In this document: positions 4,411 through 64,000 of the stretch, in pieces
Layout of the letters: every line of letters starts with the position of its first letter
Numbering within the stretch: the stretch's first letter is position 1
From: Escherichia phage vB_Ec-M-J
Length of the DNA: 64,000 nucleotides
Strand: one strand, 5' to 3'
Sequence record: OQ718158.1
Notes under the pieces: model-generated
Database searches by the model: none
The model's input: only the letters and a program-made list of their open reading frames with translations
What the model was told of the DNA's origin: nothing
Program-made: the position numbers and the translations under genes

Positions 4411-5505
4411 ATGAGTGATTTTTTTGATTCATTTGTCAGTACTGGGACTAGTATAGTTAATGGTGTTATTGATAATATCAACATCATTAGAGAACCAGCT
4501 TTTGAGAATTATAACGCTGCACAACGTGTGTTTGGTACAGCAGGTGAAATGGGTTTTTCATTCTATAATTTACCAAAATTTAAGAACAGTTTTATTATCG
4601 AATTCGTACTAACCCCGTTCGCAAAGAATTTTATTAAAACTCAACTCCCAGATACACATACTGATTTTGATGTTAATAATGTATCGTGCTTTGTAAAAGA
4701 TGTAACACTTCCTAGTTTTTCTTTTAGTGTTGAAACCGTAAACCAATACAACAAAAAACGTTTAGTTACTGGTGATATTGTTTATAAACCCAGTAATGTT
4801 GTTTTCTATGATACTGTTGATGGTGCTGGATATCTCCTAATGGATGCATATCGTAAGTTCTACTATGGTGACTTCTTTGACAAGAACCCACAATCTTACC
4901 GAAATGACGTACTCAGTACACCAGAAAATTTCAATGGTTTAGGTGGAAACTGGGGTCGTTCTGTAATGAACAATGGTAACTACGACAACCAGTACTTTTT
5001 CAAATCAATTAATATCTATGAAATTGATAATGAAACCTATACAGTTCATAACATGATAAATGTATTCATCGAAGATATACAATTAGAAACTAAATCTATG
5101 GAAAGTGAAGGTGACCCAGCACTATTATCTTTGACTATGCGTTATGAAGCGTGTAACAACTTTGGTCCTGAAGGGTACTTGAGTATTGGTGTCCCTACAA
5201 TGGAAATTGCACAACTCATCACCGATACTGAAGGTCTTGGTGTGAGTGGATTCTTTAAGTACTTTGGTGAACTTGATGACAAAACTAAAGGAATTTCGAC
5301 AGTTGGTAAAATTATCCGAGCAGGAACATCAGTTAGTGATATAATCAGTAGTGCTGGTGATATCCTTCGTGGTGACATTACTCCTGATACCATCCGAAAC
5401 ATAGGTTCCGCAGTGACAAGAGGTGCAAATGCTATTGGTTTAGGAAGCATCGTTTCTTCTGCAAGCTCAAAATTCGGATTAGGTAATATATTAGGAGATT
5501 TTTAA
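4411..5505 (+). CDS. hypothetical protein in the tail module (364 aa) with a Gly/Ser-rich C-terminal tail
   Basis: Strong Shine-Dalgarno (AAGGAGA); 4-nt gap to the next gene. No recognisable catalytic motif. Confidence 0.7.
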   Translation: MSDFFDSFVSTGTSIVNGVIDNINIIREPAFENYNAAQRVFGTAGEMGFSFYNLPKFKNSFIIEFVLTPFAKNFIKTQLPDTHTDFDVNNVSCFVKDVTLPSFSFSVETVNQYNKKRLVTGDIVYKPSNVVFYDTVDGAGYLLMDAYRKFYYGDFFDKNPQSYRNDVLSTPENFNGLGGNWGRSVMNNGNYDNQYFFKSINIYEIDNETYTVHNMINVFIEDIQLETKSMESEGDPALLSLTMRYEACNNFGPEGYLSIGVPTMEIAQLITDTEGLGVSGFFKYFGELDDKTKGISTVGKIIRAGTSVSDIISSAGDILRGDITPDTIRNIGSAVTRGANAIGLGSIVSSASSKFGLGNILGDF

Positions 5506-7645: not shown

Positions 7646-9157
7646 ATGGATAATTTTTTCAGTACTGAAACTACCACAGTACCTAATGGATATGTATATA
7701 CTTCTCACACTGGTGGCAAATATGTATTTCTAGAAGGTTTCTGGTTTAACGACAATAATATGTTAATGGTAGACCCTAAAAAATACCCATCCATGTACGC
7801 AAGTGCTCGACAACAGATTGTTGAGCACAATCTATCTTCTAGTGAATATAAAATTGGTAACAAATATATTCTTGAAGGTAAAGAGTGTACATTTCTTGGT
7901 GAAAATCGTTTCAATTCTAAAGATGGAATTCTACTAACTGAAAGTGAAATTATCACTGAACTAATGGCAGATGACCACCGTGTATATAATGTTTCAAAAG
8001 AAACTCTACAAAAAGAATGGAACTCCCTAAAATTCTATATCCTTCCACCATATGCTGATGATATTTCTATTCCAGCAGGTATGGAAGTTAGTGGATTTAA
8101 ATTCATCCCTAAAAATCACCGTTTTGTTGATGCAAAATCTGGACGTCCAGTTGACCCAGCAATGACACGTAAACTTTCCGATGAAGGTATGCGTATTGCT
8201 CGCCAATTAGCACCAAAAAACAAACTAATTCCAATTAAATCTACTTTAGTACAAGGTAATACTCGTTCCGAATGGAATGGTAAAGAATTTTGTGATAATG
8301 ATGGTAATGTTGTAATTCCAGAACAAAATGCACATGTAATCTTTAATGCATATCAGCAATTTGTTAAGGCTAACCCTGGTGATTTTCCTTCACTAACTGG
8401 TGATCATGAATCAGGTGAACAACGTTTTGGTTCAGGTGAAAAGCCAGAACAACCCAAACAACCAGTAAAACAGCCAGTATTCGCAACAAAAGAATCCATT
8501 AATGAAGCAGATGAAGAGATTGAAGAAACTGAATCTGTTGTGGTTCCACATGGTTACCGCATTACTTCAAATAAAGGTAAAACATACATTAAACAAAAAA
8601 ATGCATGGTTTGATGTAGAAACTAAAAAACAACTAAATTCTAGTGCTGCAAAAAGTGTTGAACGTGCTGCTCAACGTGATATAATTCGCCATAATAGTTC
8701 TGGTGCAATGAAAATCGGAACTAAAGTAAAATCTAAGAAAGGCACAGAGTATTCTTATATCGGTGGTAACCGCTTTATTAGTGCTGATGGTAAATTGATT
8801 CCAAAATCAACTGCTGATGACATTCTTGCTCGTTATGATGCAGAACGTGCTGATAAGAAAGAAGAAGAACCTGAAGATAAAGTAGATGCTGAAGTATCAA
8901 GTACTGATGTAGTTGAACCAAAAGCTGAACCTACTAAAGAACCAGAACCTGTATCAGAGCCAGAACCTGAAGTTCCTGCTCCTGGTGATGAAGTTCAATC
9001 ATTGGCTTCACGAATTAAAGAATCACCTTACGCTAAGAAAATTACAGTACTCTTAACGCGTGGTGATGAGGTTTCTCTAATTGCTGCTGACATTTTACTA
9101 TCTGGTAAAAAGGATGAAACAGTGCAAATTTTAAAATCATTAAATAAGAATGATTGA
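7646..9157 (+). CDS. hypothetical protein with an internal duplicated module and a Pro/Glu-rich linker
   Basis: Track start 7604 is GTG and overlaps the upstream gene; ATG 7646 has an AAGGAGA Shine-Dalgarno. Duplicated segments PNGYVYTSHTGGKYVF... / PHGYRITSNKGKTYIK... and KIGNKYILEGKECTFLGENRFNSKDG / KIGTKVKSKKGTEYSYIGGNRFISADG. Confidence 0.7.
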   Translation: MDNFFSTETTTVPNGYVYTSHTGGKYVFLEGFWFNDNNMLMVDPKKYPSMYASARQQIVEHNLSSSEYKIGNKYILEGKECTFLGENRFNSKDGILLTESEIITELMADDHRVYNVSKETLQKEWNSLKFYILPPYADDISIPAGMEVSGFKFIPKNHRFVDAKSGRPVDPAMTRKLSDEGMRIARQLAPKNKLIPIKSTLVQGNTRSEWNGKEFCDNDGNVVIPEQNAHVIFNAYQQFVKANPGDFPSLTGDHESGEQRFGSGEKPEQPKQPVKQPVFATKESINEADEEIEETESVVVPHGYRITSNKGKTYIKQKNAWFDVETKKQLNSSAAKSVERAAQRDIIRHNSSGAMKIGTKVKSKKGTEYSYIGGNRFISADGKLIPKSTADDILARYDAERADKKEEEPEDKVDAEVSSTDVVEPKAEPTKEPEPVSEPEPEVPAPGDEVQSLASRIKESPYAKKITVLLTRGDEVSLIAADILLSGKKDETVQILKSLNKND

Positions 9158-9179: not shown

Positions 9180-10169
9180 ATGGCTAAAAAAATTAATGAA
9201 GCACAAGTTAAAATCGATATCGCAGGACTAGAATCTGAAGATCTAGAAACACTATCTCGTATGCTTGCACTAGCTGGTCAAGCCGAGCGTCAAGCTTCTC
9301 CTGTTGCTGCTCCAGTTCCTTCTATGGGGTCAATGACCCCTTCTCTACCACCAATCGCTCCACTCGATATGGATTCAATTGGTGCTGGTGCAGAAGAAGA
9401 AGTTGGTGGTTCAATGGATGGTGCAATTGATGCACCTGTTGAAGACCCATTAGAAGTTGCTGCTGACTCACTATCTGCTGAAGCTGGTGATTTTGGTGGT
9501 GATTCTGAAGAAGTAAGTATGGATGCAGAGTTCGAAGAGCCTGGTGTTGCAGATGAAGAAGAGTTTTCTTTAGATCTTTCCGGTCAACCTCAACTAGAAT
9601 CAGTTGAAGAAGAGGAAGAAGAAGAAATCATCGAAGAAGAATTCGATTTCAGTCGTATGCTATCTCTAGCTGGTCTTCAAGACGAACCAGAAGATGAATA
9701 TTCAGTAGAAGGTAACCCAGATACTGAAGTTAAAGTTGAAGAAAACACTTTCCTACCAGACCTAACCATCTCTGAAGATGAAGAACAAGGTGACAGTACT
9801 GATTTTGGACCTTACAACACTGAAGCTGATGCCGTTCGTGACGGTCAAGCTAAAACTAATGGTGTAGAAGGTGACCACTTTGTTGTTATTACCAAGGGTA
9901 ACAAGTTTTACTGGAGACGTGTCGTTGATGAAGATGTTGACAACCGTCCTGAACCAGAGTACTATGACAATGACGGTAACGAGAACCGTGTTCACAAATT
10001 TGAACCTAAGTTCCCAGGTACTGCTCTAGGTGACAACCCACTCAATGTTAATGAGAGTGATGAGTCCGTGGAAGGTAACGAAGAACTAGAAGATGAAAGC
10101 GATGAAGAAGTCGAAGACATTTTCGAAAGTCTCCAGAAGAAATATCAACAATTTCTAGGGGACAAATAA
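9180..10169 (+). CDS. highly acidic protein (Asp/Glu-rich; repeated SRMLxLAG motif)
   Basis: 329-aa ORF with AAAGGA Shine-Dalgarno; long E/D tracts (EEEEEEEIIEEEFDF); LSRMLALAGQ and FSRMLSLAGLQ both present. Confidence 0.7.
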   Translation: MAKKINEAQVKIDIAGLESEDLETLSRMLALAGQAERQASPVAAPVPSMGSMTPSLPPIAPLDMDSIGAGAEEEVGGSMDGAIDAPVEDPLEVAADSLSAEAGDFGGDSEEVSMDAEFEEPGVADEEEFSLDLSGQPQLESVEEEEEEEIIEEEFDFSRMLSLAGLQDEPEDEYSVEGNPDTEVKVEENTFLPDLTISEDEEQGDSTDFGPYNTEADAVRDGQAKTNGVEGDHFVVITKGNKFYWRRVVDEDVDNRPEPEYYDNDGNENRVHKFEPKFPGTALGDNPLNVNESDESVEGNEELEDESDEEVEDIFESLQKKYQQFLGDK

Positions 10170-10170
10170 G

Positions 10171-10563
10171 ATGGGATATAATTATCGTGAATTGGTTGAA
10201 GCATTAGATGAAATCACTTCTAGTGAAGAATCTACTGAAGAAGAAAGTTTTGCAGTTGAGACTCCTTCTGATGCTGTTGCCACCGATTTACTTAAAGATA
10301 TCACCGAATGCCTTATCCACATTGTGGATAAGGTTAAATCAGGTGAAGATCAAAAAGAAATCGTAGAAAAGCTTCAAAAAGCGTGTGACATTTTATCGGA
10401 TGTTCGATATAATGATGAAAGTACTGAAGAAGTTGATGAATCCACTGATTGCTGCTTCGGAACCAAAGATATGGGTCCGAAAATTGGTAAAGATGGTGTC
10501 CAAGACTATAAAGTTAAAGATGCTCCTTCATATGCAGCAAGACAGGGTTTCGTGGGGATGTAA
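10171..10563 (+). CDS. hypothetical acidic protein
   Basis: 130-aa ORF starting 2 nt after the previous stop, with GGGGA Shine-Dalgarno. Confidence 0.65.
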   Translation: MGYNYRELVEALDEITSSEESTEEESFAVETPSDAVATDLLKDITECLIHIVDKVKSGEDQKEIVEKLQKACDILSDVRYNDESTEEVDESTDCCFGTKDMGPKIGKDGVQDYKVKDAPSYAARQGFVGM

Positions 10564-10566
10564 TTT

Positions 10567-10944
10567 ATGATTCCTGAACCACACAACAGTACTGAATTTC
10601 AAAACGATGTACTTTTAAAAGTTAGAGAAGTACATGGATCAGACGCTGAATTAACAGACCGTATGCTTCTGATGTCAATTTTTGAAAATTTCAGAACTGG
10701 CGGTGGTTTAAGACTTAGCAAGTTTGGATATACAATTTGTAAAGAAAACATTCTTTATGAATTTACAAAAATCCCCTTGCAAAGAGAGTTCAAAAGTTCT
10801 ATAATCTTTACATCGCTTGATAGGATATGTACTTCACCCTACTATGTAGAAGGGCAGTACATATACCTCTCGGACGCAATGATAGTTACAGAGTTAACAT
10901 TGTGTGGTGATGATTTTAGAATGTTATTTTCGATGCACATGTAG
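10567..10944 (+). CDS. hypothetical protein
   Basis: 125-aa ORF, 4-nt gap after the previous stop, GGGGA Shine-Dalgarno. Confidence 0.6.
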   Translation: MIPEPHNSTEFQNDVLLKVREVHGSDAELTDRMLLMSIFENFRTGGGLRLSKFGYTICKENILYEFTKIPLQREFKSSIIFTSLDRICTSPYYVEGQYIYLSDAMIVTELTLCGDDFRMLFSMHM

Positions 10945-10969
10945 CTTCGAAAATAAAGAAAAAAAGATG

Positions 10970-10997
10970 TTGACAACGCCGAATGATGTGTTATAAT
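10970..10997 (+). promoter_or_regulatory. strong sigma70-type promoter P1 (TTGACA-N16-TGtTATAAT, A-rich upstream)
   Basis: Exact -35 TTGACA at 10970-10975 and exact -10 TATAAT at 10992-10997 with extended TGn; A-tract upstream. Confidence 0.75.
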
Positions 10998-11061
10998 GAC
11001 CATCACGAAGCAAGTTTTCAAAATCACAAGATGTGAGATTGAAAAAGAAATAAAAAAGTTG

Positions 11062-11089
11062 TTGACAAGCCTGAACGATGTGATATAAT
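11062..11089 (+). promoter_or_regulatory. strong sigma70-type promoter P2 (TTGACA-N16-TGaTATAAT), tandem copy of P1
   Basis: Exact -35 at 11062-11067 and -10 at 11084-11089. Flanking sequence is nearly identical to P1 (gatgtg.TATAATGACCA). Confidence 0.75.
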
Positions 11090-11150
11090 GACCACATCAA
11101 GACGGCAAAGAGAAATGCCTTTTTAAATACACGGATGATTCATGAAGTAA

Positions 11151-11194
11151 CAAAGGAACTGATAAGTTAAAAATTCTTTTAACACAGTTCCTTT
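11151..11194 (+). promoter_or_regulatory. leader hairpin (9-bp stem aaggaactg / cagttcctt, ~26-nt loop) in the 5' UTR of the ATPase gene
   Basis: Perfect inverted repeat between P2 and ATG 11261. Confidence 0.4.
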
Positions 11195-11260
11195 ACTTTT
11201 GCCCACGGATTGGCTATAATAGAAACCTAAACGATTTTATCCAACAAAAGGAAAATATAC

Positions 11261-12589
11261 ATGTCTACTCAAAACAACGATATCCTGAACGTAAAACTGA
11301 CTCCTAAGAAAGCTAAAGAAGCAATGGCACTGGCTGACATGATTCAAGATAGCCTGATGATTTGGGGTAGCCCTGGTATCGGTAAATCTGCTATCGCACG
11401 TCAATACGCTGATGAGAACTACCCACTGCGTAAAGATAACGTGGCAAAAATTGAGTTCATGAAACAACAAATCGAAGCTGATACTGAAAATGCTGATCAA
11501 CTTCGCCGTGAACTGGCAGCGTTTGAAGCCAAACTAATCGACCAAGACACTAACTTTATCGATTTCCGTTTGTCTCAGATTGAACCAAGTGACCTTCGCG
11601 GTATCCCAGTTCCAGAGAAAGTGTTCCTTGATATGGATGGTAAGCAACTGATTGAATCTGAACTGGCTAGTGCACAAGATTACATCGCTGAAACAGCAGT
11701 TGTGTGGGCAGCACCTAAAGTACTGAAGCTGTCTCCAGATTGGAAAGGTGTTATTCTGTTTGACGAAATCAACTCTGCAATGCCGATTGTACAGGCAGCG
11801 TCTTATCAGCTAATCCTCGACCGTTGTGTTGGTGAGATGAAGCTACCTAAGACTGCACTGATTCTCGCAGCAGGTAACCGTGAAACTGATGGCGGTGTAA
11901 CGTTCTCTCTAGCTACACCACTGCGTGACCGTATGACCCACATCGAAATGATTCCTTATCATCAAGATTGGATTAACGATTATGCGATTGGTAAGCGTTT
12001 GAACCCAGCAACTGTAGCGTTCATCAACAACACTGGTGCTAAACACTTCAACACCCTTAGCCCACAAGATCCTTCTCACTGTGGTGGTACTTCTCCACGT
12101 TCATGGGAAGCAGTAGCACGCTACGAAGATCTGAAGAAAGTTAAGAACATTGATAAAGAAGTGTTCCGTGCGATGATTGCAGGTCGTGTTGGTGAAGGCG
12201 TAGCAACTGAATACATCGAGTATGTTGATAACGTAGCTAAACTACCAGATACCATGTCCATCCTACAGGGTGAGATTAAAGAGATTGATGCTTCGCTTGA
12301 TATTTCCGCGAACTACTTCATCACTCTGAATCTGGTTTACAAAATTATCGACCTCTACAATGAGAAGCAAGAACAACGTCTACCAGTGGAAGATTGGGGT
12401 AAGCTGTGCAACAACTTCATCACCTTCCTAGACCATAACTTCTCTGCAACTCAAGCAGAACTGGCAGTACTGGCGATTCGTACCATCACGCTTCATAAAG
12501 TAGCGATTACGATTAAAGATGTACCAGCGTTTAAAGACTTCGTTATGAAGTACTCTGACCTAGTACGTAAAGCACGCTCTCTTGGTTAA
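11261..12589 (+). CDS. AAA+ ATPase, MoxR/CobS-like (AAA_5-type)
   Basis: Walker A GSPGIGKS and Walker B ILFDEIN; 442 aa; AAAGGA Shine-Dalgarno; immediately followed by a vWA-domain gene, the typical MoxR/CobS partner. Confidence 0.85.
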   Translation: MSTQNNDILNVKLTPKKAKEAMALADMIQDSLMIWGSPGIGKSAIARQYADENYPLRKDNVAKIEFMKQQIEADTENADQLRRELAAFEAKLIDQDTNFIDFRLSQIEPSDLRGIPVPEKVFLDMDGKQLIESELASAQDYIAETAVVWAAPKVLKLSPDWKGVILFDEINSAMPIVQAASYQLILDRCVGEMKLPKTALILAAGNRETDGGVTFSLATPLRDRMTHIEMIPYHQDWINDYAIGKRLNPATVAFINNTGAKHFNTLSPQDPSHCGGTSPRSWEAVARYEDLKKVKNIDKEVFRAMIAGRVGEGVATEYIEYVDNVAKLPDTMSILQGEIKEIDASLDISANYFITLNLVYKIIDLYNEKQEQRLPVEDWGKLCNNFITFLDHNFSATQAELAVLAIRTITLHKVAITIKDVPAFKDFVMKYSDLVRKARSLG

Positions 12590-12613
12590 TAATTAAAAAG
12601 AGTGTTGACAAGG

Positions 12614-12640
12614 AGGATACCACATGGTATCCTTCTTTTA
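12614..12640 (+). terminator. rho-independent terminator or attenuator between the ATPase and vWA genes
   Basis: aggatacc-acat-ggtatcct hairpin followed by tcttttatc. A TTGACA hexamer sits just upstream at 12605-12610. Confidence 0.5.
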
Positions 12641-12664
12641 TCTTAACTAAACGAGGAAATACAA

Positions 12665-14074
12665 ATGTCAGATAAACGTTTCAGTGATGTTACTCCGGCT
12701 CTCCAGAAAGAATGTCAAGATCGTCTGATCTTAGCTCGCACATCTTTAATGCTAACATTCCCATTCTTTGGTGTACTGGCTTCTCGTCTGCGTCCAGTTG
12801 CAAACAACACATGGTGTCGTACTTTGGCTGTAGATGGTAAGCATTTATTCTACAACGTAGAATTCATCATGGGTATTCAGGACCAATCCAAAAAGTCAGC
12901 ATACGAAGAAGCAATTCGTGAGAAACATCCTGAAGTAACTGAAGAACAACTTAAAGAAATGACAGAAGGTTTGACCGATGAAAACCTGATTGCAGTTATC
13001 TGTCATGAGATTCTTCACTGTGCATATGACCACTTCTTGCGTCGTGGTATGCGTGACCCGCAGCGTTATAACCGTGCTGCTGACTATGCAATTAACCAGA
13101 TTCTTGTTCGTGATAAAATTGGTAAAATCCAAAGCCAATGGCTGTACGATAAAAAGTACGATGGTATGACTGCTGAAGAGATTTATAACATTCTCGAAGA
13201 AGAAGATAAGCAGGATCAAGACGGAGAAGGTGAAGGAAATCCACAGGCTGGTAGTGGTGAGGGTGAAGGTAAATCACGCGGTACTTTTGGTGATATCAAA
13301 GATGGTAAAGGCAAAGGTACAACAATTGACCAGCATGACGTTCCACAAGAAGGTCAAGAGGGTGGTTCAAGTGAGAAACAAAAACGTGATTATATGGATG
13401 ATTTCAAAACAGCAATGATGAATGCTGCTCGTGCAGGTGGTACTCCTGCTGAAATCGCACGTATGATTAACAACTTCAAAGAACCTAAGATTGACTGGCG
13501 TTCCAAACTTCACCGCACACTGCGTAGCTGGTTGAAGTCTGATGCAACTTATCAAAATCCTAATCGTCGTTCATGGGGTGCTGGTTTTGGTAGTTCTGGT
13601 TCATTCTACGGGAATCCAATCTTCCCTGGTATGAAACCAGATGATGATATTGATATTGCAATTGCACTAGATGCATCCGGTTCTATCTCTGAAGATATGC
13701 TCCGTGATTTCATCAGTGAAGTACTGGGTATCACTAAGCAGTTTAAACAATTTAAAATCCGTATCATGACGTTCGATACTGAAGTTTATACTGTTAAAGA
13801 TTACAAAACTGGTGAAGAGAGTAAGATTCTCGAATATCCAGTGAAAGGTGGTGGTGGTACTGACTTTGAAGCAGTATGGGTTCATATGAAGCATGACAAC
13901 TATAAGCCTAAACAGCTTATTATGTTTACCGATGGTGAGCCGTGGCAGTCATGGGGTGATCCTGATTACTGTAAGACACTGTTTGTTATCCACAGTAATC
14001 CTAACAAACAAGCACCATTTGGCGAAACTGTACACTACGAATATGAAGCTGACAAAAAGCGTCAACGTAGCTAA
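12665..14074 (+). CDS. vWA-domain protein with N-terminal HExxH putative metallopeptidase (DUF2201/CobT-like)
   Basis: HEILH motif in the N-terminal half; C-terminal vWA MIDAS-like residues DASGSIS ... GGGTDF ... FTDGEP; Gly-rich acidic linker; GAGGAA Shine-Dalgarno. Confidence 0.8.
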   Translation: MSDKRFSDVTPALQKECQDRLILARTSLMLTFPFFGVLASRLRPVANNTWCRTLAVDGKHLFYNVEFIMGIQDQSKKSAYEEAIREKHPEVTEEQLKEMTEGLTDENLIAVICHEILHCAYDHFLRRGMRDPQRYNRAADYAINQILVRDKIGKIQSQWLYDKKYDGMTAEEIYNILEEEDKQDQDGEGEGNPQAGSGEGEGKSRGTFGDIKDGKGKGTTIDQHDVPQEGQEGGSSEKQKRDYMDDFKTAMMNAARAGGTPAEIARMINNFKEPKIDWRSKLHRTLRSWLKSDATYQNPNRRSWGAGFGSSGSFYGNPIFPGMKPDDDIDIAIALDASGSISEDMLRDFISEVLGITKQFKQFKIRIMTFDTEVYTVKDYKTGEESKILEYPVKGGGGTDFEAVWVHMKHDNYKPKQLIMFTDGEPWQSWGDPDYCKTLFVIHSNPNKQAPFGETVHYEYEADKKRQRS

Positions 14075-14086
14075 GTACTAAATAAT

Positions 14087-14117
14087 GAGAACGGAAAATT
14101 CCGTTCTCTACTTTTTT
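14087..14117 (+). terminator. rho-independent terminator
   Basis: gagaacgg-aaaatt-ccgttctc perfect hairpin followed by tacttttttc. Confidence 0.75.
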
Positions 14118-14121
14118 CAGC

Positions 14122-14149
14122 GGGACAGCTTGGAAAAAGGTGATATAAT
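14122..14149 (+). promoter_or_regulatory. sigma70-like promoter (GGGACA-N16-TGaTATAAT)
   Basis: Extended -10 TGATATAAT at 14141-14149 with a partial -35 GGGACA; the same architecture occurs at 63587-63628. Confidence 0.5.
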
Positions 14150-16630: not shown

Positions 16631-18595
16631 TTATCTTAATGTAACCAGTGTACGTCCGGCAAATCTCACATCAGGAGTTGCAGGAATACTGAACACTACG
16701 CTTGTTCCATTGAATGTGACACTATCAACTTCAACACGAGTGTAAACACCAGTACTTACGAGTTCTTGAATTTCAGCAGTTACTATGTTACTAGCAGTTA
16801 CTGTTAATGTGTAATATGAGCCGTTTAAAACCCACGCTGACGCAGTAAACGGGTCAGTACGTACAGAACCAGAACCAATTGGAACCCATTGTCCTTGGAC
16901 CTTCTGCATCGATGTACGTTCGGTATTTGAGTATGCAATCATACCATCAACACCAACTGAGTTATCAATTGTAGCCAGTACTGGTAATTGAATACCATAT
17001 CGGTTGAAACGAGTACGAATAACACCGTTATCATATATACTTACATCAGCATAACTTCCCATAGTGAAACGTAAGTCTGCACCAAGTAGTTTTATATCAC
17101 TTTGGTTTGTAGTACTTTCTAATGTGAATACACCATTCTCTAGTAAGTTTATGTTTTTGAATTTGTTATTAGTTCCATTGAAATTAGTATTTGCATTATA
17201 AGTACTAACACCATTAACTGTAATAGTGTCACCAGTAGTGTCACCTAGTGTTGTATTACCTTTAACAACTAAATTCCCGCTGGCATTGATGTTACCTGCG
17301 TTTAAATCACCAGTTAGTGATGTTGAACCATCTACAATAATATTTCCATGAAAATGTGATTCACCATTTTTAAATTCAACTTGAACTTTATTCATTGAAC
17401 TTAAAGAAATAATATTACTACTTGCACTTATCCCTACGTTTGTGTTTGATGCATTATCAAAACGTATTACTGGCGTAGCTGCTGGTGTAGCGGTAGTTTG
17501 GAATAATGTTAATGTTCCATTATTAATTCTAACACGCTCAGTTCCGGCTGTTGTAAAACCAATTGCATCATCTGCTGGATGGAATATACCAGTATTAGCA
17601 TCGGACCACTTAGTTGGGTCATTACCTGGGTTGTTCGTTGGGTCAAACGGATTATTATTAAATGTCAATGCTGGTGCTGCTGCACTGCCATACACCACCC
17701 CAAAACGCCCAGAGCCGTCTGTTCCATCATTATACATGGAATCGCCAGTTCTACGTAAACACTCAATCACAACGTTATCTATGGATGTTTGAACGGTCCC
17801 TGCGTTTGTTCTAAATTGGCGATGATTTGCAATCATTACAGTATTGTCATATAATACTGAAGCAGCGGAAATGCTTGTTCTTGACTGACGAAGACGTATA
17901 TTCTTATCTTCAGTTATAATAATCCAATCACCATCTGAAAGTGCAGTTTGGTTCATTGGAACACCAGATGCAAATGGTTTGGTCAAGTCAGTATCTGTTG
18001 CTAAATTTTCAAGGCCATCATGTCCAGTACTGGGAATAGATGCAGTAATAATTCTAGCAAAAGCGTATGTTACTAGTTTAGCACCAGATATATTTGGATT
18101 AGAGTCAACATAATATAAAATTTCAATCCAATTACCTTGTCCAGTTGGATTTGTAGGTGTAAATGTAACAGGACTTGTTTGTGGATTATTTGCTTCATAA
18201 TGTGCTTGTGCTGCATCCATTATACCACGAACGACATAATAATCACCATTAAGCGATGGTGATGGTGCTGGTAGTGGAGTTTGTGCTAAAGGTGGATCGA
18301 TATCATCTGGGATGGGATTATATGTACCAACAAATTGTAAACCACTAGTTACTGAATCTGGTAATTGGGAAGTAAGAAGTTTACCGTTTGCATCTAGGTT
18401 TGCAAAACGTCGATATGCCATTGAACCATCTTCAAAGTCTAGTACACCTTCAAATGCTTTCCATCCTTTATTGTATCTAATCATCCCTGATCTAACCACA
18501 TCAGCGGTTTCTTTAGTCGGTGCTTTAGGTAATTCTAGAAATGCCTGACTATCTATAATTACACCACCATCACCTCTAATTCGATTTATACTCAT
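16631..18595 (-). CDS. tail fibre / receptor-binding protein
   Basis: 654-aa ORF with GAGGAA Shine-Dalgarno; Thr/Asn/Gly-rich beta-rich composition; last gene of the fibre block. Confidence 0.55.
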   Translation of the reverse strand: MSINRIRGDGGVIIDSQAFLELPKAPTKETADVVRSGMIRYNKGWKAFEGVLDFEDGSMAYRRFANLDANGKLLTSQLPDSVTSGLQFVGTYNPIPDDIDPPLAQTPLPAPSPSLNGDYYVVRGIMDAAQAHYEANNPQTSPVTFTPTNPTGQGNWIEILYYVDSNPNISGAKLVTYAFARIITASIPSTGHDGLENLATDTDLTKPFASGVPMNQTALSDGDWIIITEDKNIRLRQSRTSISAASVLYDNTVMIANHRQFRTNAGTVQTSIDNVVIECLRRTGDSMYNDGTDGSGRFGVVYGSAAAPALTFNNNPFDPTNNPGNDPTKWSDANTGIFHPADDAIGFTTAGTERVRINNGTLTLFQTTATPAATPVIRFDNASNTNVGISASSNIISLSSMNKVQVEFKNGESHFHGNIIVDGSTSLTGDLNAGNINASGNLVVKGNTTLGDTTGDTITVNGVSTYNANTNFNGTNNKFKNINLLENGVFTLESTTNQSDIKLLGADLRFTMGSYADVSIYDNGVIRTRFNRYGIQLPVLATIDNSVGVDGMIAYSNTERTSMQKVQGQWVPIGSGSVRTDPFTASAWVLNGSYYTLTVTASNIVTAEIQELVSTGVYTRVEVDSVTFNGTSVVFSIPATPDVRFAGRTLVTLR

Positions 18596-19465: not shown

Positions 19466-19530
19466 ATAACTACCTCACTTGTTAAGATGGTGTCACCATA
19501 ATTGATGACACCGTTTTTTTATTATAATTA

Positions 19531-22500
19531 TTAAGCAGTACGTTGTGCAATGAACAAATCAGTAACTGGACTTACACCATCATAAATTACTTGGTAAATG
19601 GTCACGCTACCAGCAGTTTTGTTTAGTTCACCATCAACAACAGCATAAGTACCATCAGTTGTAAAGTTTCTGTTACCAGTTGCATCTTGTTTAACATAGA
19701 TGTATACTGATGCAGCTTTACCGCCACCAATTAGGCCAGTAATTGGAGCCAACGTGGTATCTTGGTCTAGAGTGATGAAGTATACGTTACTTGTACCATC
19801 TGGAGTCCATGTTCCGGTTGGAGCAATTACTGATGATGTAACTTGAGTTGGGATTACATCATACTTTTTGGTAGTTACTGTTGTAGTAGTTAAGTTAGCA
19901 TTAGTAGTGGTTAGTTCACCAGTCACTGTTACTGCCTTATCAAACACAGCATTTTCTTTAAATGATGAAGTTGCATTAACGGTTAGAACGTCAGCCGCTG
20001 CGTCACCTAATGTTACGTTACCATTCACAGTTAGTGCTCCACCTACTGTTGCGTTACCAGTAATGGATGCACTTGCAAGTGTAGCCAAACCTGATGTTGT
20101 AATTGTAGAAACGGTTGTTGCAGCGAATCCAGCAGTACCAGTTGCAGTGATATTGCCACCCACTGTTATGTTACCCGCAGTGGTCACTGCACCAGTGATA
20201 TTTGCACCACTTGACATAGTTACTAAACCACCAAATGAACCAGTAGTAGTAACTTCTAAAGTATTACCTTTAAGTAATCCAGTTGCAGTGATGGAAGTAC
20301 CAGCAGTAATTGCAGTACCTGCACTTAATGTGGTTCCAGCAGCTACGTTGTTAGCTGCAGTCAAAGACTTAACAGCTACATCGGAATCTGCTTGGTTCAA
20401 TTGTGCATTTAGTACGCCAGTAACAGTGAAGTTACCGTTGTTTACAACGTTACCATTAACGATTAGGTTGTTGTTTTGTGAACCGACTTCACCAATGGTT
20501 GCAGCCTTGGATATAAGTGATGCACCAGATGTAATATCACTTGCTGCCTGTATTGTTTGTTCGGCAACAATTGCATATGGTTCAATTGTTTGACCACTAA
20601 CATCAATATCAGCATTTATACCACCGTCAACACGCAAGGAACCTGCGATGAACGTATTTGGAAAAATCTGTACTGTTTCTGGGTTTTCACCAGTTTGTGT
20701 ACCAATTACAACATTTGCTCCAGTTTTCACTGCACCAGCAGTTGTGATAGAACCGAGTGTAGTAGCACCAGTTACTGATAGTGTTCCACCTATGGTTGCA
20801 TTGTTTGTTACTATTAAGCCAGTACCTGTACCATTAAAGGTAGACGATGGTGCTGAAATTGCACCAGTAACACCAAGAGAACCACCAACAGTTGCATTAC
20901 CATCTGAATGAATGGTTGTTGCGACAGAAATACTATTTGCAACAACATCAGTACTGGAAAGATCCAAACTACCAGGAGTTAATGTACCAGCAACAGTTAC
21001 ATCATCACTGAATGTAGCTGCACCAGTTACACCTAGTGTAGTACTAAAGTTACCGGATGTTGATGTAATACCAGATGTTACAATAGATCCCGCAGTTGCA
21101 GTTCCAGTTACATCAAGTGTTCCACCTATGGTTGCATTATTAGTAACAGATAGAGCAGTTCCTGAACCATTTAGTGTTACAGATGGAGCAGATACTACAC
21201 CAGTTACACCCAAATCGCCACCAACAGTTGTGTTACCGTCGGAATGCATGGTTGTTGCTACAGAAATACTATTTGCAGTAATATCAGATGATGCTAAATT
21301 CAAACCACCAGCAGGTGTAAATGTACCATTTACGGTTACATCCCCAGTAAAGGTTGAATCTCCTGACACATCAACTGTTGTTGTCGAAACACCACCATTT
21401 AAGTTTGTTAAACCAGTGACACTTAGTGTTCCACCAACCGTTGCGTTGTTGTTAACAGTTAAGCCAACACCTGGTCCAGTTAAGGACGCAGAAGGACTTG
21501 TTATTGCCCCACCAAAAGATGCAGTTCCAACAGAACTTATAGTTGTGGAAGATGATAATGATTTAACTTCAACATCAGATGCTGATAAATCAACACCACC
21601 ACTTGCAGTAAGTAATCCATCAACTTGTAAGGTTCCACCAAGTGTTGCTGCACCAGTACTAGATAGTGTATTTGTACTTACTGATGTTGCAGACAAACTA
21701 CCAGTATTAACAGTACCTAGTGTTGTTATGCCAGTTACGTTTAATGTACCATTTAAAACAGACGCCTTTGTAACAGACAAACTATCAATTGTAGCTGGAC
21801 CAGAAACATCGATAGTTTCTGCATCTAAACTACTTAATGTTGATGCACCAATTACATTAAGTGTTGTTGCAGCTTCTACACTGTTTACCACAAGATCAGC
21901 ACCAGCAAGATTCAAACCACCTTCTGGTATAAATTCACCTTTAACAGTTAATTTCTGAACAGTACTGTCACCTGAAATATCCAACGCAGATGCTGCTACG
22001 CCACCATTAAATGTACTTTGACCAGTAACTGCTAAAGTTGTTCCAACTGTTGCACTGTTTAGTGCTGCATTACCACTTATTGATGCGGCAGGTGCGGTTA
22101 TTGTACCTTCATCCAACTGCAACCCACCAGAAACAACTTGAACACCACCAGTTGCTACTGTAACTTTACCAGCGGTATTAACAGTACCAGATGTGGATAC
22201 TGCACCGACAAGAGTTGAAGTACCATTAACTGTCAAATTACCAGAAATTTCAGGACTACCAGTAACAATACCAGTTGTTAGAACCAAATCTCCACCAACA
22301 GTTGTTGAACCAGTACTTGCTAGTGTTGAAGCTGTGATATCAGCGGAACTTAGATCAATAGATCCATCAACACTAATATCCCCACCAACATGCACGTTTC
22401 CTAATGAATCTAACGATTTAACGGTCACATCAGTTGTGCTTAAGTCAATTATACCAGCAGTTAGTGTGCCAGATACAGCCAAATCACCAGTGATTGCAGT

Positions 22501-40610: not shown

Positions 40611-40638
40611 TTGACAAACGCAAAGAATGTGATATAAT
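40611..40638 (+). promoter_or_regulatory. strong sigma70-type promoter (TTGACA-N16-TGaTATAAT), third copy of the P1/P2 family
   Basis: Exact -35 at 40611-40616 and -10 at 40633-40638 with conserved gaatgtgaTATAATG context. Confidence 0.75.
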
Positions 40639-40676: not shown

Positions 40677-42965
40677 ATGAATCTTACCCAATTATTCAAA
40701 AAAAGCGACGAACTGGCAACTTCTCTGGGTCATACCTTCTTGACTATTGACCATCTAAGTGCTACAGTACTGACAATCGATAGCATCAAAGCAGTATTTG
40801 AAGATATGAACATCGATGCAGACAACCTACACGGTCGTTTGATTGCATATCTGAAGAATACAACATTCCCACATGCACCTAAAAGTGCTGATGGTGATGA
40901 AGCGAACCGCACATCACTTCTCGTGAACCGTGTAGTTCAGGAACTTTCTAAGAAATCAGTAATTGAGCAACTTAAACGTGATGATTTCTCAATTGATGCT
41001 TATTTTGTACTGTTTGAGTGTTTGTCCTTCCCAAATACTGCACTAGAAGCAGCATTGCGTGAAGAGGGTATCACTTGTACTGAAGCAGCACGAACTCTAC
41101 AGAAGCACGTAGAAGCAATCGACAACGGAATCAACCTTCAAAGCATTAGTGATGAGCCAACTGGGGAGAAAAAAGTGGCACAACAGCAACCATCGTCCAA
41201 ACAAAAAGGTTTAGAAGATTACACCACTAACCTAACCGCACTTGCAAAAGAAGGTAAACTTGACCCAATGATTGGTCGCCAGAAAGAGCTTTCTGCACTG
41301 ATTGAAACTCTGGCCCGTAAGACTAAGAAGAATGCCATCCTGACTGGTGAAGCTGGTGTTGGTAAAACTCAAATCATTGATGGTCTAGCACAGGCAATCG
41401 CTGATGGTGAAGTACCAGAGCATCTTAAAGATGTTGAAATTCTGTCTCTGAACGTAGGTGCACTGACGGCTGGTACTAAGTACCGTGGTGAGTTCGAAGA
41501 ACGTATCGATAACCTACTAAAAGAACTGAAGAAACGTGAAAACACTATTGTGTTCATCGATGAAATCCATATTATGGTTGGTGCTGGTTCAGCAAGCAAC
41601 GGTTCTATGGATATGAGCAACATGCTCAAACCTGCACTATCTCGTGGTGAGATTCGTGTAATCGGTGCAACAACTTACGATGAATATCGTAAAAACATCG
41701 AAAAAGATAGTGCACTAACTCGCCGTTTCATGAAAATTGATGTAGTTGAGCCAACAATTGATGAAACCCGTGCGATTGTGAATGGTTTGAAATCTACTTA
41801 TGAAACTTTCCATAACGTAGAGTTCAGTACTGAAGCAATGGATGCAGTTATTACACTAAGTGATAAGTTCCTGAAGAACAAACACTTCCCTGACAAAGCA
41901 ATCGACCTAATGGATGCGGCAGCAGCGAAAGTACGTTCTCGTGAAACTGATGATAACATCATCACTGTTGCACTGATTCAAGAAGTTGTTGCAGGTATCG
42001 CAAACCTAGATATTAACGTGGTTGCTTGCACTGAAAGTGAACGTATGCGTAATCTACCAGATGCACTGCGTTCTCGTGTATACGGTCAAGAAGAAGCAGT
42101 ACAGAAACTGGTTGATAACGTGATGGTAGCTCGTGCTGGTCTGCGTGATAAATCAAGTGTTCAAGGTGCATTCATGTTTGTTGGTCCATCTGGTACTGGT
42201 AAAACTGAAATTACCAAAGCACTGGCTGATGCAACTGGTTCTGAACTGATTCGTTTCGATATGTCCGAGTTTTCACAGGAACATACTGTTGCTAAACTGA
42301 TTGGTTCACCTCCAGGCTATGTTGGTCACGATTCTGGTAACGGTCTGCTACTCGACAAGATTGAGCAGTTCCCGAATGCAGTACTGTTGCTTGATGAAAT
42401 CGAAAAAGCTGATCGTAAAGTACTACTAACCTTCCTACAGGTTCTGGACGAAGGACGTTTGACTGGTTCACAAGGTAAAACTGTTTACTTCAATAACGTA
42501 ACTGTTATTATGACGACTAACCTTGGTGCAGCAGATTCAACCAAGCGTAGTATTGGGATGAGCGGTAGTGATACAGCACAAGATAAAGCTATTAAAGCAT
42601 TCTTGCCACCTGAATTCATCAACCGTATCGATAGTATTGTGACATTCAAAGACCTAAGCAGCGAAGCGATTGACAGCATCATTGATAAGTTCATGGGTAG
42701 TCTGAATGAACAAATCAAAGACCGCAAAGTTAAAGTTTCCCTGACTAAAGCGGCACGTGAGTGGTTGGCAACAAATGGTGTTAAAGTTGGGATGGGTGCA
42801 CGTCCAATGAAACGCACTATTGAGCAAAACATCCGTGTTCCACTAGCTAAAGAGATGTTGTGTGGTTCTCTAGTTAATGGTGGTAACGTGACGTTTGATG
42901 TGATTGATGGTAAATTGGCTATCAAACCTAAACGCACTAAAGCAGTAGAAAAAGTTATTGCGTAA
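40677..42965 (+). CDS. ClpA/ClpB-like AAA+ unfoldase (two nucleotide-binding domains)
   Basis: Track start 40653 is GTG; ATG 40677 has an AGGAGA Shine-Dalgarno. NBD1 Walker A GEAGVGKT and Walker B VFIDEIH; NBD2 Walker A GPSGTGKT and Walker B LLLDEIEKA; Clp-N-like N-terminal repeats. Confidence 0.9.
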   Translation: MNLTQLFKKSDELATSLGHTFLTIDHLSATVLTIDSIKAVFEDMNIDADNLHGRLIAYLKNTTFPHAPKSADGDEANRTSLLVNRVVQELSKKSVIEQLKRDDFSIDAYFVLFECLSFPNTALEAALREEGITCTEAARTLQKHVEAIDNGINLQSISDEPTGEKKVAQQQPSSKQKGLEDYTTNLTALAKEGKLDPMIGRQKELSALIETLARKTKKNAILTGEAGVGKTQIIDGLAQAIADGEVPEHLKDVEILSLNVGALTAGTKYRGEFEERIDNLLKELKKRENTIVFIDEIHIMVGAGSASNGSMDMSNMLKPALSRGEIRVIGATTYDEYRKNIEKDSALTRRFMKIDVVEPTIDETRAIVNGLKSTYETFHNVEFSTEAMDAVITLSDKFLKNKHFPDKAIDLMDAAAAKVRSRETDDNIITVALIQEVVAGIANLDINVVACTESERMRNLPDALRSRVYGQEEAVQKLVDNVMVARAGLRDKSSVQGAFMFVGPSGTGKTEITKALADATGSELIRFDMSEFSQEHTVAKLIGSPPGYVGHDSGNGLLLDKIEQFPNAVLLLDEIEKADRKVLLTFLQVLDEGRLTGSQGKTVYFNNVTVIMTTNLGAADSTKRSIGMSGSDTAQDKAIKAFLPPEFINRIDSIVTFKDLSSEAIDSIIDKFMGSLNEQIKDRKVKVSLTKAAREWLATNGVKVGMGARPMKRTIEQNIRVPLAKEMLCGSLVNGGNVTFDVIDGKLAIKPKRTKAVEKVIA

Positions 42966-63586: not shown

Positions 63587-63628
63587 TGGGACAAAGACGT
63601 TTTTGGTGCTATAATAACATTGATGGTA
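63587..63628 (+). promoter_or_regulatory. sigma70-like promoter (GGGACA-N16-TGcTATAAT)
   Basis: Same architecture as the promoter at 14122-14149. Confidence 0.45.
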
Positions 63629-63672
63629 CAAGGAATGTACCTATTGGATTTAAAACATGGAGAGTTGAAATA

Positions 63673-64000
63673 ATGACAAATAGGCCGAAGCGTAAAAAGT
63701 ATCTTAACAATGCTGATTTACTTCGTGAGATACAAAAAAGTAAAATCTCATATTGCTGGTTACTTGATAAGTGCTACAGTATGTACGATTATATCGTTTT
63801 TGATGAATCCGAAATCACAGCAGAACTTTTAGATAAAGCTAAAGCAGCACGTATTAAACGTCTCAACAATGAAATGCTTGATGCAATTCGTGAAAAAGAA
63901 GGTATGAGTGCGAAGAAAGCGAAGGAATACGCAGATGAGCACAATTTAGTACTAACTGATGTACCTATCGATGAGGTGGTTATTCGTGTAATTACCGATG
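63673..64000 (+). CDS. possible late sigma factor (T4 gp55-like); 3' end outside the window
   Basis: ATG 63673 with GGAGA Shine-Dalgarno; open to the window end. N-terminus MTNRPKRKKYLNNADLLREIQ resembles the gp55 N-terminus (...KPKYNYVNNKELLQAII..., recalled from memory). Confidence 0.4.
   Translation, partial: MTNRPKRKKYLNNADLLREIQKSKISYCWLLDKCYSMYDYIVFDESEITAELLDKAKAARIKRLNNEMLDAIREKEGMSAKKAKEYADEHNLVLTDVPIDEVVIRVITD

Follow-up and report, generated by a model that had tools for sequence, protein, structure and literature searches.

A conserved promoter-proximal terminator and predicted leader RNA upstream of a MoxR-type ATPase operon in Rak2-like jumbo phages

We analyzed 64,000 nucleotides of Escherichia phage vB_Ec-M-J (sequence record OQ718158.1; this whole stretch is called the window below), and we describe here a 316-nucleotide gap (positions 10945-11260) that separates an open reading frame (ORF) of 125 amino acids from a gene for a MoxR-type ATPase. 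The element within this gap is a predicted promoter-proximal terminator with a leader RNA, which is a known kind of arrangement, and it is conserved across a clade of jumbo phages. We favor the view, with a probability of roughly 0.55, that the gap acts as a promoter-proximal attenuator, in which the output of a strong promoter into the downstream operon would be limited by the terminator. An initial annotation of the window had proposed a small RNA or an attenuator that controls the ATPase operon. The direction of that proposal is borne out by a terminator with covariation, but the proposal was incomplete: it missed the U-tract, a second hairpin with GGA in its loop, a third promoter (P3) and the termination of the upstream operon.

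The first part of the element is a pair of promoters, P1 and P2. The pattern TTGACA-N13-TGn-TATAAT has three exact matches in the window (10970-10997, 11062-11089 and 40611-40638), as compared with 0.14 +/- 0.38 expected from 100 dinucleotide shuffles, none of which reached three. With consensus matches so far above the shuffle expectation, P1 and P2 are not a chance occurrence. The three copies are exact matches at the coordinates first given for them, with the first two 92 bp apart. Each matches the two hexamers at 12 of 12 positions and has a 16-nucleotide spacer; this spacer already includes the TGn of the extended -10 element, and the original "N16" notation was thus slightly loose. The TGn is TGT in the copy at 10970 and TGA in the copies at 11062 and 40611.

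P1 and P2 are contained within a 54-nucleotide direct repeat, the copies of which are 92 bp apart and 81% identical. The first copy (10949-11002, + strand) comprises an A-rich, UP-like tract and P1, with its -35 TTGACA at 10970-10975, TGT at 10989-10991 and -10 TATAAT at 10992-10997. The second (11041-11094, + strand) comprises an A-rich tract and P2, with its -35 at 11062-11067, TGA at 11081-11083 and -10 at 11084-11089. Both promoters have 15 A residues in the 24 nucleotides before the -35, with AAAAAAAGA beside it. Transcription is predicted to start at approximately 11002-11005 for P1 and 11094-11096 for P2. An imperfect hairpin (TTTTCAAAATCACA-AGA-TGTGAGATTGAAAA; 11015-11045, + strand), whose 14-nucleotide arms are 86% complementary, occupies the part of the leader that is specific to P1; it appears also in the computed fold and is partly conserved within the genus Asteriusvirus.

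The third exact copy (40611-40638, + strand) is situated 40 nucleotides 5' of a ClpA-like gene (Shine-Dalgarno (SD) sequence AGGAGA, ATG at 40678), as the initial annotation stated. An A-rich tract had been ascribed to this family as a whole; this is correct for P1 and P2, but not for the third copy, which has 4 A residues in the 24 nucleotides. The family is also larger than these three exact copies. When the -35 is relaxed, the pattern GACA-N13-TGnTATAAT has five matches in the window, all on the + strand, versus 0.02 expected, and the additional two begin at 14124 and 63590. The fourth member, GGGACA-N16-(TGA)TATAAT (14122-14149, + strand), follows an operon terminator, which is the usual order. 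The fifth, GGGACA-N16-(TGC)TATAAT (63588-63615, + strand), lies 5' of a gene for a gp55-like late sigma factor (ATG at 63674). Together these matches support the assignment of P1, P2 and their kin, on sequence grounds, as sigma70-type consensus promoters of one phage promoter family.

The second part of the element is a predicted intrinsic terminator (11144-11203, + strand). It consists of an outer stem (GAAGUAA/UUACUUU), a main stem with perfect 10-nucleotide arms (11152-11161 and 11185-11194), a 7-bp inner stem (11166-11172/11177-11183) closed by the loop AUUC, and the tail UUUACUUUUG. A hairpin with a 9-bp stem had been noticed previously at 11151-11194. The hairpin is real, but its size was understated, in that the arms have 10 nucleotides and the whole structure, with its outer A/U extension, spans 11144-11199. 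The calculated folding energy of this structure is -17.4 kcal/mol (z = -5.0), and those of its counterparts in related phages range from -12.8 to -20.5.

Conservation was assessed with the gap sequences of 9 phages, 18 ATPase loci from IMG/VR (54-93% identity), and the GenBank sequences of Erwinia phage pEa_SNUABM_50 and Cronobacter phage GAP32. In every lineage (approximately 20 distinct ones, in which the ATPase has diverged to 54% identity), a perfect TGnTATAAT is found between the stop codon of the 125-amino-acid ORF and the ATPase gene. The -35 varies by lineage: Asteriusvirus and Alcyoneusvirus have TTGACA, an intermediate group from metagenomes has GGGACA, and phages resembling Eneladusvirus and Mimasvirus have TGAAAC(G). 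A hairpin followed by a U-tract lies 25-55 nucleotides past the predicted start in every lineage, at approximately 25-30 nucleotides in Eneladusvirus and Mimasvirus. Canonical tails such as UUUCUUUUUU occur in relatives, and the Erwinia phage provides an example of a complete terminator (AAGGCACUGA-gaaa-UCAGUGCCUU-CUCUUUUGG). Terminators of Eneladusvirus and Mimasvirus also are canonical, with stems of 8-11 bp and loops of 4-6 nucleotides. The order of promoter, short leader, terminator and ATPase gene is unchanged in approximately 20 distinct lineages that belong to Asteriusvirus, Alcyoneusvirus, Eneladusvirus, Mimasvirus and unclassified metagenomic relatives, and the remaining intergenic sequence has turned over. 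The element is missing 5' of the ATPase gene in vB_Pa-PAC2, a PA5oct-like phage that is more distantly related.

Covariation supports the terminator helix. In an alignment of 17 distinct sequences, evaluated with slid controls and 500 shuffles, 95.9% of cells in the helix are paired and four pairs have changed on both sides. Slid controls are at most 51% paired, and none of the 500 shuffles reaches the observed covariation. RNAalifold independently predicts the same helix from a 22-sequence, model-derived alignment, with CG, AU and GC found at one pair across lineages. In Klebsiella phage RaK2, a matched one-base deletion in both arms preserves the helix, and the record of phage G17 annotates the homologous hairpin as a terminator predicted by ARNold. 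By these comparative criteria, the hairpin is an intrinsic terminator. As an observation on the loop, two loci from Eneladusvirus relatives (L013, 822-825, and L021 at the same position) have identical terminator stems and reverse-complementary loops (gaaa versus tttc), which suggests that the loop was inverted in a hairpin-mediated event.

A covariance model of the terminator and second hairpins scores 65 bits at the gap, and the next match in the 64-kb window scores 24.9 bits. The model also matches RaK2 and Klebsiella phage Muenster (31 bits, E-value 4e-4), neither of which was used to build it. With this model, no further copies of the two-hairpin element were found in the window or in positions 1-50 kb of the related phage fEgEco12; the weaker matches correspond to ordinary terminators or to hairpins that resemble terminators and overlap with promoters.

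The tandem promoters described by the initial annotation are both present, but the pair is not ancestral. By comparison across genera, P1 is the ancestral promoter, as it is present in Klebsiella Alcyoneusvirus also, and P2 is a recent duplicate of P1 that is specific to Asteriusvirus. In RaK2 and Muenster, P2 is absent or at most a degenerate remnant. Phage SP27 (locus L011, 504-691) carries a perfect 94-nucleotide tandem duplication of the P2 unit, and consequently has three promoters in a gap of approximately 410 nucleotides. This arrangement indicates a recent change in copy number, presumably by unequal recombination.

The anatomy of the gap, its conservation and the covariation in its hairpins are established by these comparisons, whereas the activity of the promoters, the efficiency of termination, and the sizes and timing of the transcripts are inferred. 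We propose the following scheme. Host sigma70 RNA polymerase would initiate at the tandem, near-ideal P1 and P2, with their UP-like A tracts, consensus -35 elements, and extended and consensus -10 elements. Transcription from both would traverse the noncoding leader, and would reach the terminator approximately 50 nucleotides past the P2 start and 140 nucleotides past the P1 start. Most transcripts would stop there, to yield RNAs of approximately 105 and 200 nucleotides (approximately 55-75 nucleotides in other genera). The remainder would read through, gain a hairpin with an ACGGAU loop (11201-11214), and enter the operon that encodes the MoxR ATPase and a VWA-like protein. P3 would contribute weaker operon expression of its own, and the terminator would also end a late structural operon of approximately 7 kb that enters from upstream. 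Comparison of leaders across relatives revealed no alternative anti-terminator pairing. Also, the gap contains no conserved ORF, in agreement with its initial description as a noncoding region of 316 nucleotides; short frames that begin with ATG vary in length or are missing among relatives. Given that neither an anti-terminator pairing nor a conserved leader peptide was seen, termination is probably constitutive or controlled by a protein, and not riboswitch-like.

Several considerations weigh against attenuation. The terminator in the window is atypical, with four G-C pairs in its 10-bp main stem, a 23-nucleotide "loop" that itself folds into the inner stem, and an interrupted U-tract, and its efficiency is therefore possibly low; a simple terminator scan did not call it. 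A need to end the late operon that arrives from upstream could by itself account for the conservation of the terminator. The second hairpin lies past the termination point and is absent from terminated RNAs, so this part of the conserved element makes sense only in read-through or late transcripts. We found no transcriptome in the literature searched for any phage of Asteriusvirus, Alcyoneusvirus, Eneladusvirus or Mimasvirus.

P3 (TTTACT-N17-TATAAT; 11192-11220, + strand) has its -35 within the terminator tail, and is predicted to be weaker than P1 and P2. Between Asteriusvirus and Alcyoneusvirus, no other stretch of the gap is as well conserved. P3 is retained in Asteriusvirus; the -10 is TATCAT in Alcyoneusvirus, and phage JNE01 has TGGTATAAT. 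The other genera have TTGNCA where the U-tract ends, and a weak -10 follows approximately 17 nucleotides downstream. A modest promoter dedicated to the ATPase gene may therefore be present in all lineages. We also considered P3 as a T4-type late promoter, and rejected this assignment: TATAAATA is not enriched (2 matches versus 6.9 expected), and regions upstream of late genes exhibit ATAAATA-like motifs that P3 lacks.

The presence of P3-type promoters bears on a different explanation, in which P1 or P2 together with the terminator would constitute a free-standing small-RNA gene. Its product would be a trans-acting RNA of approximately 105 nucleotides (approximately 55-75 nucleotides in other genera), and the ATPase operon would be expressed from P3-type promoters only. 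The site has the classic signature of such a gene: it is intergenic and conserved, and in it a strong promoter is followed by a short 5' part that lacks structure and then by a terminator hairpin that ends in a U tail. In genera other than Asteriusvirus, the terminator is canonical and appears strong, and in most lineages the -35-like TTGNCA and weak -10 come right after it. These canonical, strong terminators and P3-type promoters favor an independent short transcript. However, the would-be seed, which in an Hfq-type trans-acting RNA is single-stranded and conserved, is minimally conserved here, with UUAAR and A[U/C]GGA alone shared among lineages, and the 5' end of the RNA is wholly different in Asteriusvirus, in which P2 has been inserted. 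Moreover, the conserved hairpin with GGA in its loop is past the termination point, and cannot belong to the small RNA. The weak 5' conservation and the position of this hairpin instead favor a cis-acting leader. The leader resembles no E. coli DNA, because blastn found no match at E <= 1 in 5,426 E. coli genomes, and on this basis mimicry of the host or an antisense relation to it was rejected. Rfam searches of positions 10000-12500 with permissive thresholds gave noise only, with best scores of 14.8-19.5 bits against gathering scores of 42-120, and ARAGORN found no tRNA or tmRNA gene in the window. We consider a free-standing small-RNA gene unlikely, although sequence alone does not separate it from attenuation, and both could be true.

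In a more ordinary arrangement, the hairpin would do no more than terminate the late structural operon upstream, and the promoters would merely happen to lie before it. Transcripts from P1 and P2 would read through it well, and the leader would be a long 5' untranslated region (UTR). Up to 16.6 kb, the genes of the window all point in one direction, and the block upstream of the gap encodes late functions (tail sheath, tail tube, head closure, small terminase and virion proteins). Between 10944 and the ATPase gene there is no other terminator-like hairpin that could end this block, and the terminator of Asteriusvirus is non-canonical. Overlap of promoters with terminators is also common in this genome, and is reported to be widespread in bacteria (bioRxiv 10.64898/2026.08.19.745784). 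Opposing this explanation, the order in which the promoter comes before the terminator has been kept in every lineage over deep divergence, even as the rest of the intergenic sequence turned over. Elsewhere in these genomes, the usual order is used, in which a terminator precedes or overlaps a promoter. Because a perfectly conserved promoter sits before the terminator in every lineage, in reverse of this order, the site is presumably more than an operon terminator. Additionally, the terminators of Eneladusvirus and Mimasvirus are textbook-strong and lie approximately 25-30 nucleotides from the predicted start. We therefore regard the ordinary arrangement as improbable.

Further hypotheses arise from GGA motifs on both sides of the terminator. 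The second hairpin, GCC-CACGGAUU-GGC (11201-11214, + strand), directly follows the U-tract and displays GGA (11207-11209) in a loop with the sequence ACGGAU. This GGA is invariant in all 22 sequences, within the loop pattern A[C/U]GGAU. The stems, of 3-8 bp, differ by lineage (GCCAAA/UUUGGU, GUCAGA/UCUGAU, UGCUUA/UAAGCG, GCUCA/UGAGU, and GCC/GGC in the window), and the helix has four covarying pairs. A conserved loop on a variable stem indicates an element that functions at the RNA level, rather than a palindromic DNA operator. Upstream of the terminator, the motif AUACACGGAUGA (11127-11138, + strand) has GGA at 11133-11135, and AUGGA(A/U) stands at the corresponding position in other genera. 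Most lineages have an A[U/C]GGA motif ahead of the terminator; its alignment is ambiguous (GGA versus AUG), and lineage L029 lacks the motif. A third GGA (11250-11252) lies within the SD sequence AAAGGAAAA of the ATPase gene (11248-11263, + strand, up to the ATG that begins at 11261). The GGA motifs at 11133, 11207 and 11250 are thus spaced by 74 and 43 nucleotides, and the GGA of the SD sequence is absent in Eneladusvirus and Mimasvirus.

The host protein CsrA selects RUACARGGAUGU, with GGA in a hairpin loop, in experiments using systematic evolution of ligands by exponential enrichment (SELEX), and crosslinking-immunoprecipitation sequencing in Salmonella gave AUGGA or [A/C]UGGA in apical loops as the in-vivo motif (PMC4347634, PMC5207318). 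The leader could accordingly bind host CsrA, or a phage protein of the same specificity, and serve as a platform from which that protein controls translation, stability or read-through of the ATPase mRNA. In addition to the loop GGA that is invariant while its stem covaries, the apical-loop A[U/C]GGA corresponds to the in-vivo motif, and AUACACGGAUGA agrees with the SELEX consensus at 10 of 12 positions. A leader transcribed from the same promoter class offers a parallel. Downstream of the promoter at 63588-63615, the 5' UTR of the gp55-like sigma gene contains the 6-bp hairpin GGUACA-AGGAA-UGUACC (63625-63641). The sequence there, GUACAAGGAAUGU, agrees almost perfectly with the SELEX consensus of CsrA; the SD sequence is ACAUGGAGAG. 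This hairpin is kept in phage PBECO4, with the loop AGGAU, and Eneladusvirus (Serratia phage BF and Yersinia phage fHe-Yen9-04) has at that place a different stem, UAAAAC/GUUUUA, with the loop AAGGAUC. On the other hand, the sigma-gene leader of Muenster lacks a hairpin with GGA in its loop, and such hairpins are not enriched in the window (28 versus 32.7 in shuffles). The second hairpin has merely 3 bp in the window, the upstream motif could be read as GGA or AUG and is lost in L029, and the SD sequences of Eneladusvirus and Mimasvirus have no GGA. We view a role as a CsrA platform as doubtful, and the link of the A[U/C]GGA motifs to CsrA as speculative. A still broader hypothesis makes the leader the first known case of an RNA element conserved among jumbo phages, composed of a terminator and an A[U/C]GGA-loop hairpin, that recruits CsrA or a similar phage protein. 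Together with the CsrA-like hairpin of the sigma-gene leader, such an element would tie middle-class genes and the late switch to the Csr network of the host, and so to its carbon and growth state. We would call this a long shot.

Transcription from P1 and P2 might alternatively prime replication, as at the T7 primary origin, where tandem promoters precede an AT-rich region, or at T4 oriF. The gap does have tandem strong promoters and an AT-rich noncoding stretch (31-35% GC, versus 37-46% in flanking genes). However, GC skew has no inflection at the site and tracks only gene orientation, a single promoter replaces the tandem layout in all other genera, and the conserved parts are covarying RNA hairpins and not an unwinding element. 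A replication origin at this site is therefore very improbable. Ribosome-mediated attenuation through a leader peptide is effectively refuted by a lack of frame conservation, since the 11-codon ORF that enters the 5' arm of the terminator (ATG at 11135 to TAA at 11168) has no SD sequence or alternative anti-terminator pairing, shrinks to three codons in A4 and RaK2 and to two in Erwinia phage pEa_SNUABM_50, and is absent in L019 and L022.

As to the timing of an attenuator transcribed from P1 and P2, the initial annotation assigned the promoters to an early family that uses host sigma70. The sigma70-type family is supported by the TGnTATAAT in all of the approximately 20 relatives, but the early class is not, and the timing could be early or middle. 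The initial annotation also expected the 28-nucleotide motif to define the early regulon, and this expectation fails. The left-end early region of fEgEco12 (its first 20 kb) contains approximately 27 consensus sigma70 promoters before small hypothetical genes, and these differ in their spacer, in which the motif AGTACTG stands just before the -10 (AGTACTG-TATAAT). Further features common to them are A-rich tracts upstream, a start-region motif, ACATCAAG, and a GC-rich 5' hairpin (for example, GGGGAGAA..UUCUCCCC) ahead of the SD sequence. Given this different spacer, and the P1 counterparts in Eneladusvirus and Mimasvirus that have the divergent-class -35 TGAAAC(G), P1 and P2 may belong to the early or to the middle class. 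Downstream of P2, the start-site motif ACATCAAG is followed by a small 5' hairpin (11094-11119, + strand), formed by GGCA at 11104-11107 and TGCC at 11116-11119, in the layout of the left-end early promoters of fEgEco12. With these hallmarks, P2 looks like an early-promoter cassette that was duplicated before the ancestral leader.

Several other promoter-like sequences were noted. In fEgEco12, the repeated element AAAGGGATTGACTCCGGTCAGTCCCTTTGCTATTAT occurs in four copies (9491-9526, 13489-13524, 16758-16793 and 19510-19545). It is a 12-bp terminator-like hairpin with a TTGACT -35 in its 5' arm and a TATTAT -10 just past the stem, such that a terminator and the next promoter are fused. The sequence GTGATATAAT has five copies in the window, compared with 0.33 expected. 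Two of them (5336-5345 and 8676-8685) are inside structural genes and may be internal promoters; at 8658-8685, the copy has a TTGAAC -35 at 16 nucleotides. On the minus strand, at 55729-55703, perfect TTGACA and TATAAT hexamers are separated by a 15-nucleotide spacer that lacks a TG motif.

By sequence similarity, the window is a portion of a Rak2-like jumbo myovirus of approximately 350-385 kb, in the genus Asteriusvirus. In megablast searches, positions 10500-12600, over the full length of this segment, match EC.P1, Ecwhy_1, fEgEco12, WPEC5, BF17, WPEC3 and Turkey3 at 99.7-99.9% identity (99.9% for fEgEco12, EC.P1 and Ecwhy_1), and match the 121Q/PBECO4 group (genus Asteriusvirus) at approximately 88%; Klebsiella phages of the RaK2 type match more weakly. 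Coordinates of the fEgEco12 annotation correspond one-to-one with those of the window up to approximately 16.6 kb.

The 125-amino-acid ORF (10567-10944, + strand) is the last of the late block, and adjoins the promoter on its upstream side in every lineage examined. No Pfam match was obtained for it at E <= 0.1, and its PHROG family, phrog_15638, is one of unknown function. The fEgEco12 record labels it "transcriptional regulator HdfR", a label that appears unsupported. A 13-nucleotide inverted repeat (10924-10956; 92% complementary, 7-nucleotide loop) covers its stop codon and enters the A-rich tract of P1. On the other side of the gap, the first gene (11261-12589, + strand) encodes the MoxR/AAA ATPase of 442 amino acids (phrog_1297), and its description as N4 gp24-like comes from the RaK2 and Muenster records. 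The next gene (12665-14074, + strand) encodes an N4 gp25-like protein of 469 amino acids with a metallopeptidase-like DUF2201_N domain (PF13203, 1.5e-36) and a VWA-like domain (PF09967, 9.7e-22). The two genes form a putative operon, which is closed by a predicted terminator (GAGAACGG...CCGTTCTC plus TACTTTTTT; 14087-14117, + strand) that the covariance model matches. Between the two genes, a 12-bp hairpin (AAGGAGGATACC-ACAT-GGTATCCTTCTT; 12605-12645) is followed by TTATCTT and overlaps the promoter-like sequence TTGACA-N17-TATCCT. Within the operon, this hairpin may act as an attenuator or mark a site of processing.

Therapeutic use of Rak2-like jumbo phages is being proposed against E. coli, Klebsiella and Erwinia, and the transcription program of these phages is known from motif predictions only. 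The locus described here is a concrete and cheaply testable handle on this program. The pair of MoxR ATPase and VWA proteins is conserved from N4-like to jumbo phages. If the short RNA or attenuation is real, the element would found a new family of cis-regulatory RNA suitable for deposition in Rfam, and one terminator would have two uses, by ending a late operon and throttling a promoter embedded before it. If the GGA motifs bind CsrA, the timing of phage genes would be linked to host physiology; demonstration of CsrA binding or of a small-RNA function would raise interest in the element. Close relatives with one, two or three promoter copies also provide a natural series in which to study effects of promoter dosage.

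Two well-studied phage systems have arrangements comparable to this one. The T7 promoters A1, A2 and A3 are tandem early sigma70 promoters at the end of the genome that drive the whole early operon, with no terminator known to follow within 100 nucleotides. As in the gap, several strong promoters for host polymerase are in tandem within a few hundred base pairs and point in one direction. However, the pair in the gap is inside a region of structural genes and meets a terminator at once, and no sequence relationship exists between the two systems. In lambda, transcription from the strong promoter PR' ends at tR' to give a 194-nucleotide "6S" RNA, and the Q protein mediates antitermination. A strong promoter that produces a short, terminated leader RNA, with downstream genes that need read-through, is common to both, as a prediction in our case. 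Regulated antitermination is the feature of lambda; no gene resembling lambda Q, Q-binding element or promoter-proximal pause element was identified for the gap, where the Pfam and PHROG scans covered the upstream 125-amino-acid ORF only.

The closest precedent for the promoters is in the same clade. For the Rak2-like phages CBB and GAP32, RpoD-like promoters with UP-like elements were predicted and are concentrated in the early region, and a "divergent RpoD-like" class with a TGAAACG -35 was linked in CBB to DNA-synthesis genes and a gp55-like sigma gene (PMC5259590). The same promoter classes are found here, in that the P1 homologues of Eneladusvirus and Mimasvirus carry TGAAAC(G)-N-TGGTATAAT, and one class member precedes the gp55-like sigma gene in CBB, as in the window. 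The CBB and GAP32 promoters were, however, only listed, by prediction, and no promoter-then-terminator arrangement, tandem duplication or leader structure was described (PMC5259590). Overlapping promoter-terminator pairs (bioRxiv 10.64898/2026.08.19.745784) are similar in that the -35 of P3 lies in the terminator tail and -35 elements embedded in hairpins are found repeatedly in the fEgEco12 early region. In the pairs of that preprint, a terminator is followed or overlapped by the next promoter, whereas here a strong promoter is placed before the terminator. Like 5' leaders controlled by CsrA (PMC4347634, PMC5207318), the gap has A[U/C]GGA motifs, one in an apical loop, with at least two candidate sites tens of nucleotides apart and one over the SD sequence in Asteriusvirus. 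The candidate sites here differ in that they flank a terminator, and not a ribosome-binding site alone, and the site at the SD sequence is not conserved across genera. The conserved unit of promoter, leader, terminator and hairpin has no match in Rfam and was not found in the phage literature that we searched. Its promoter class was thus already known by prediction, and the leader element, previously undescribed, is probably a real expression-control element.

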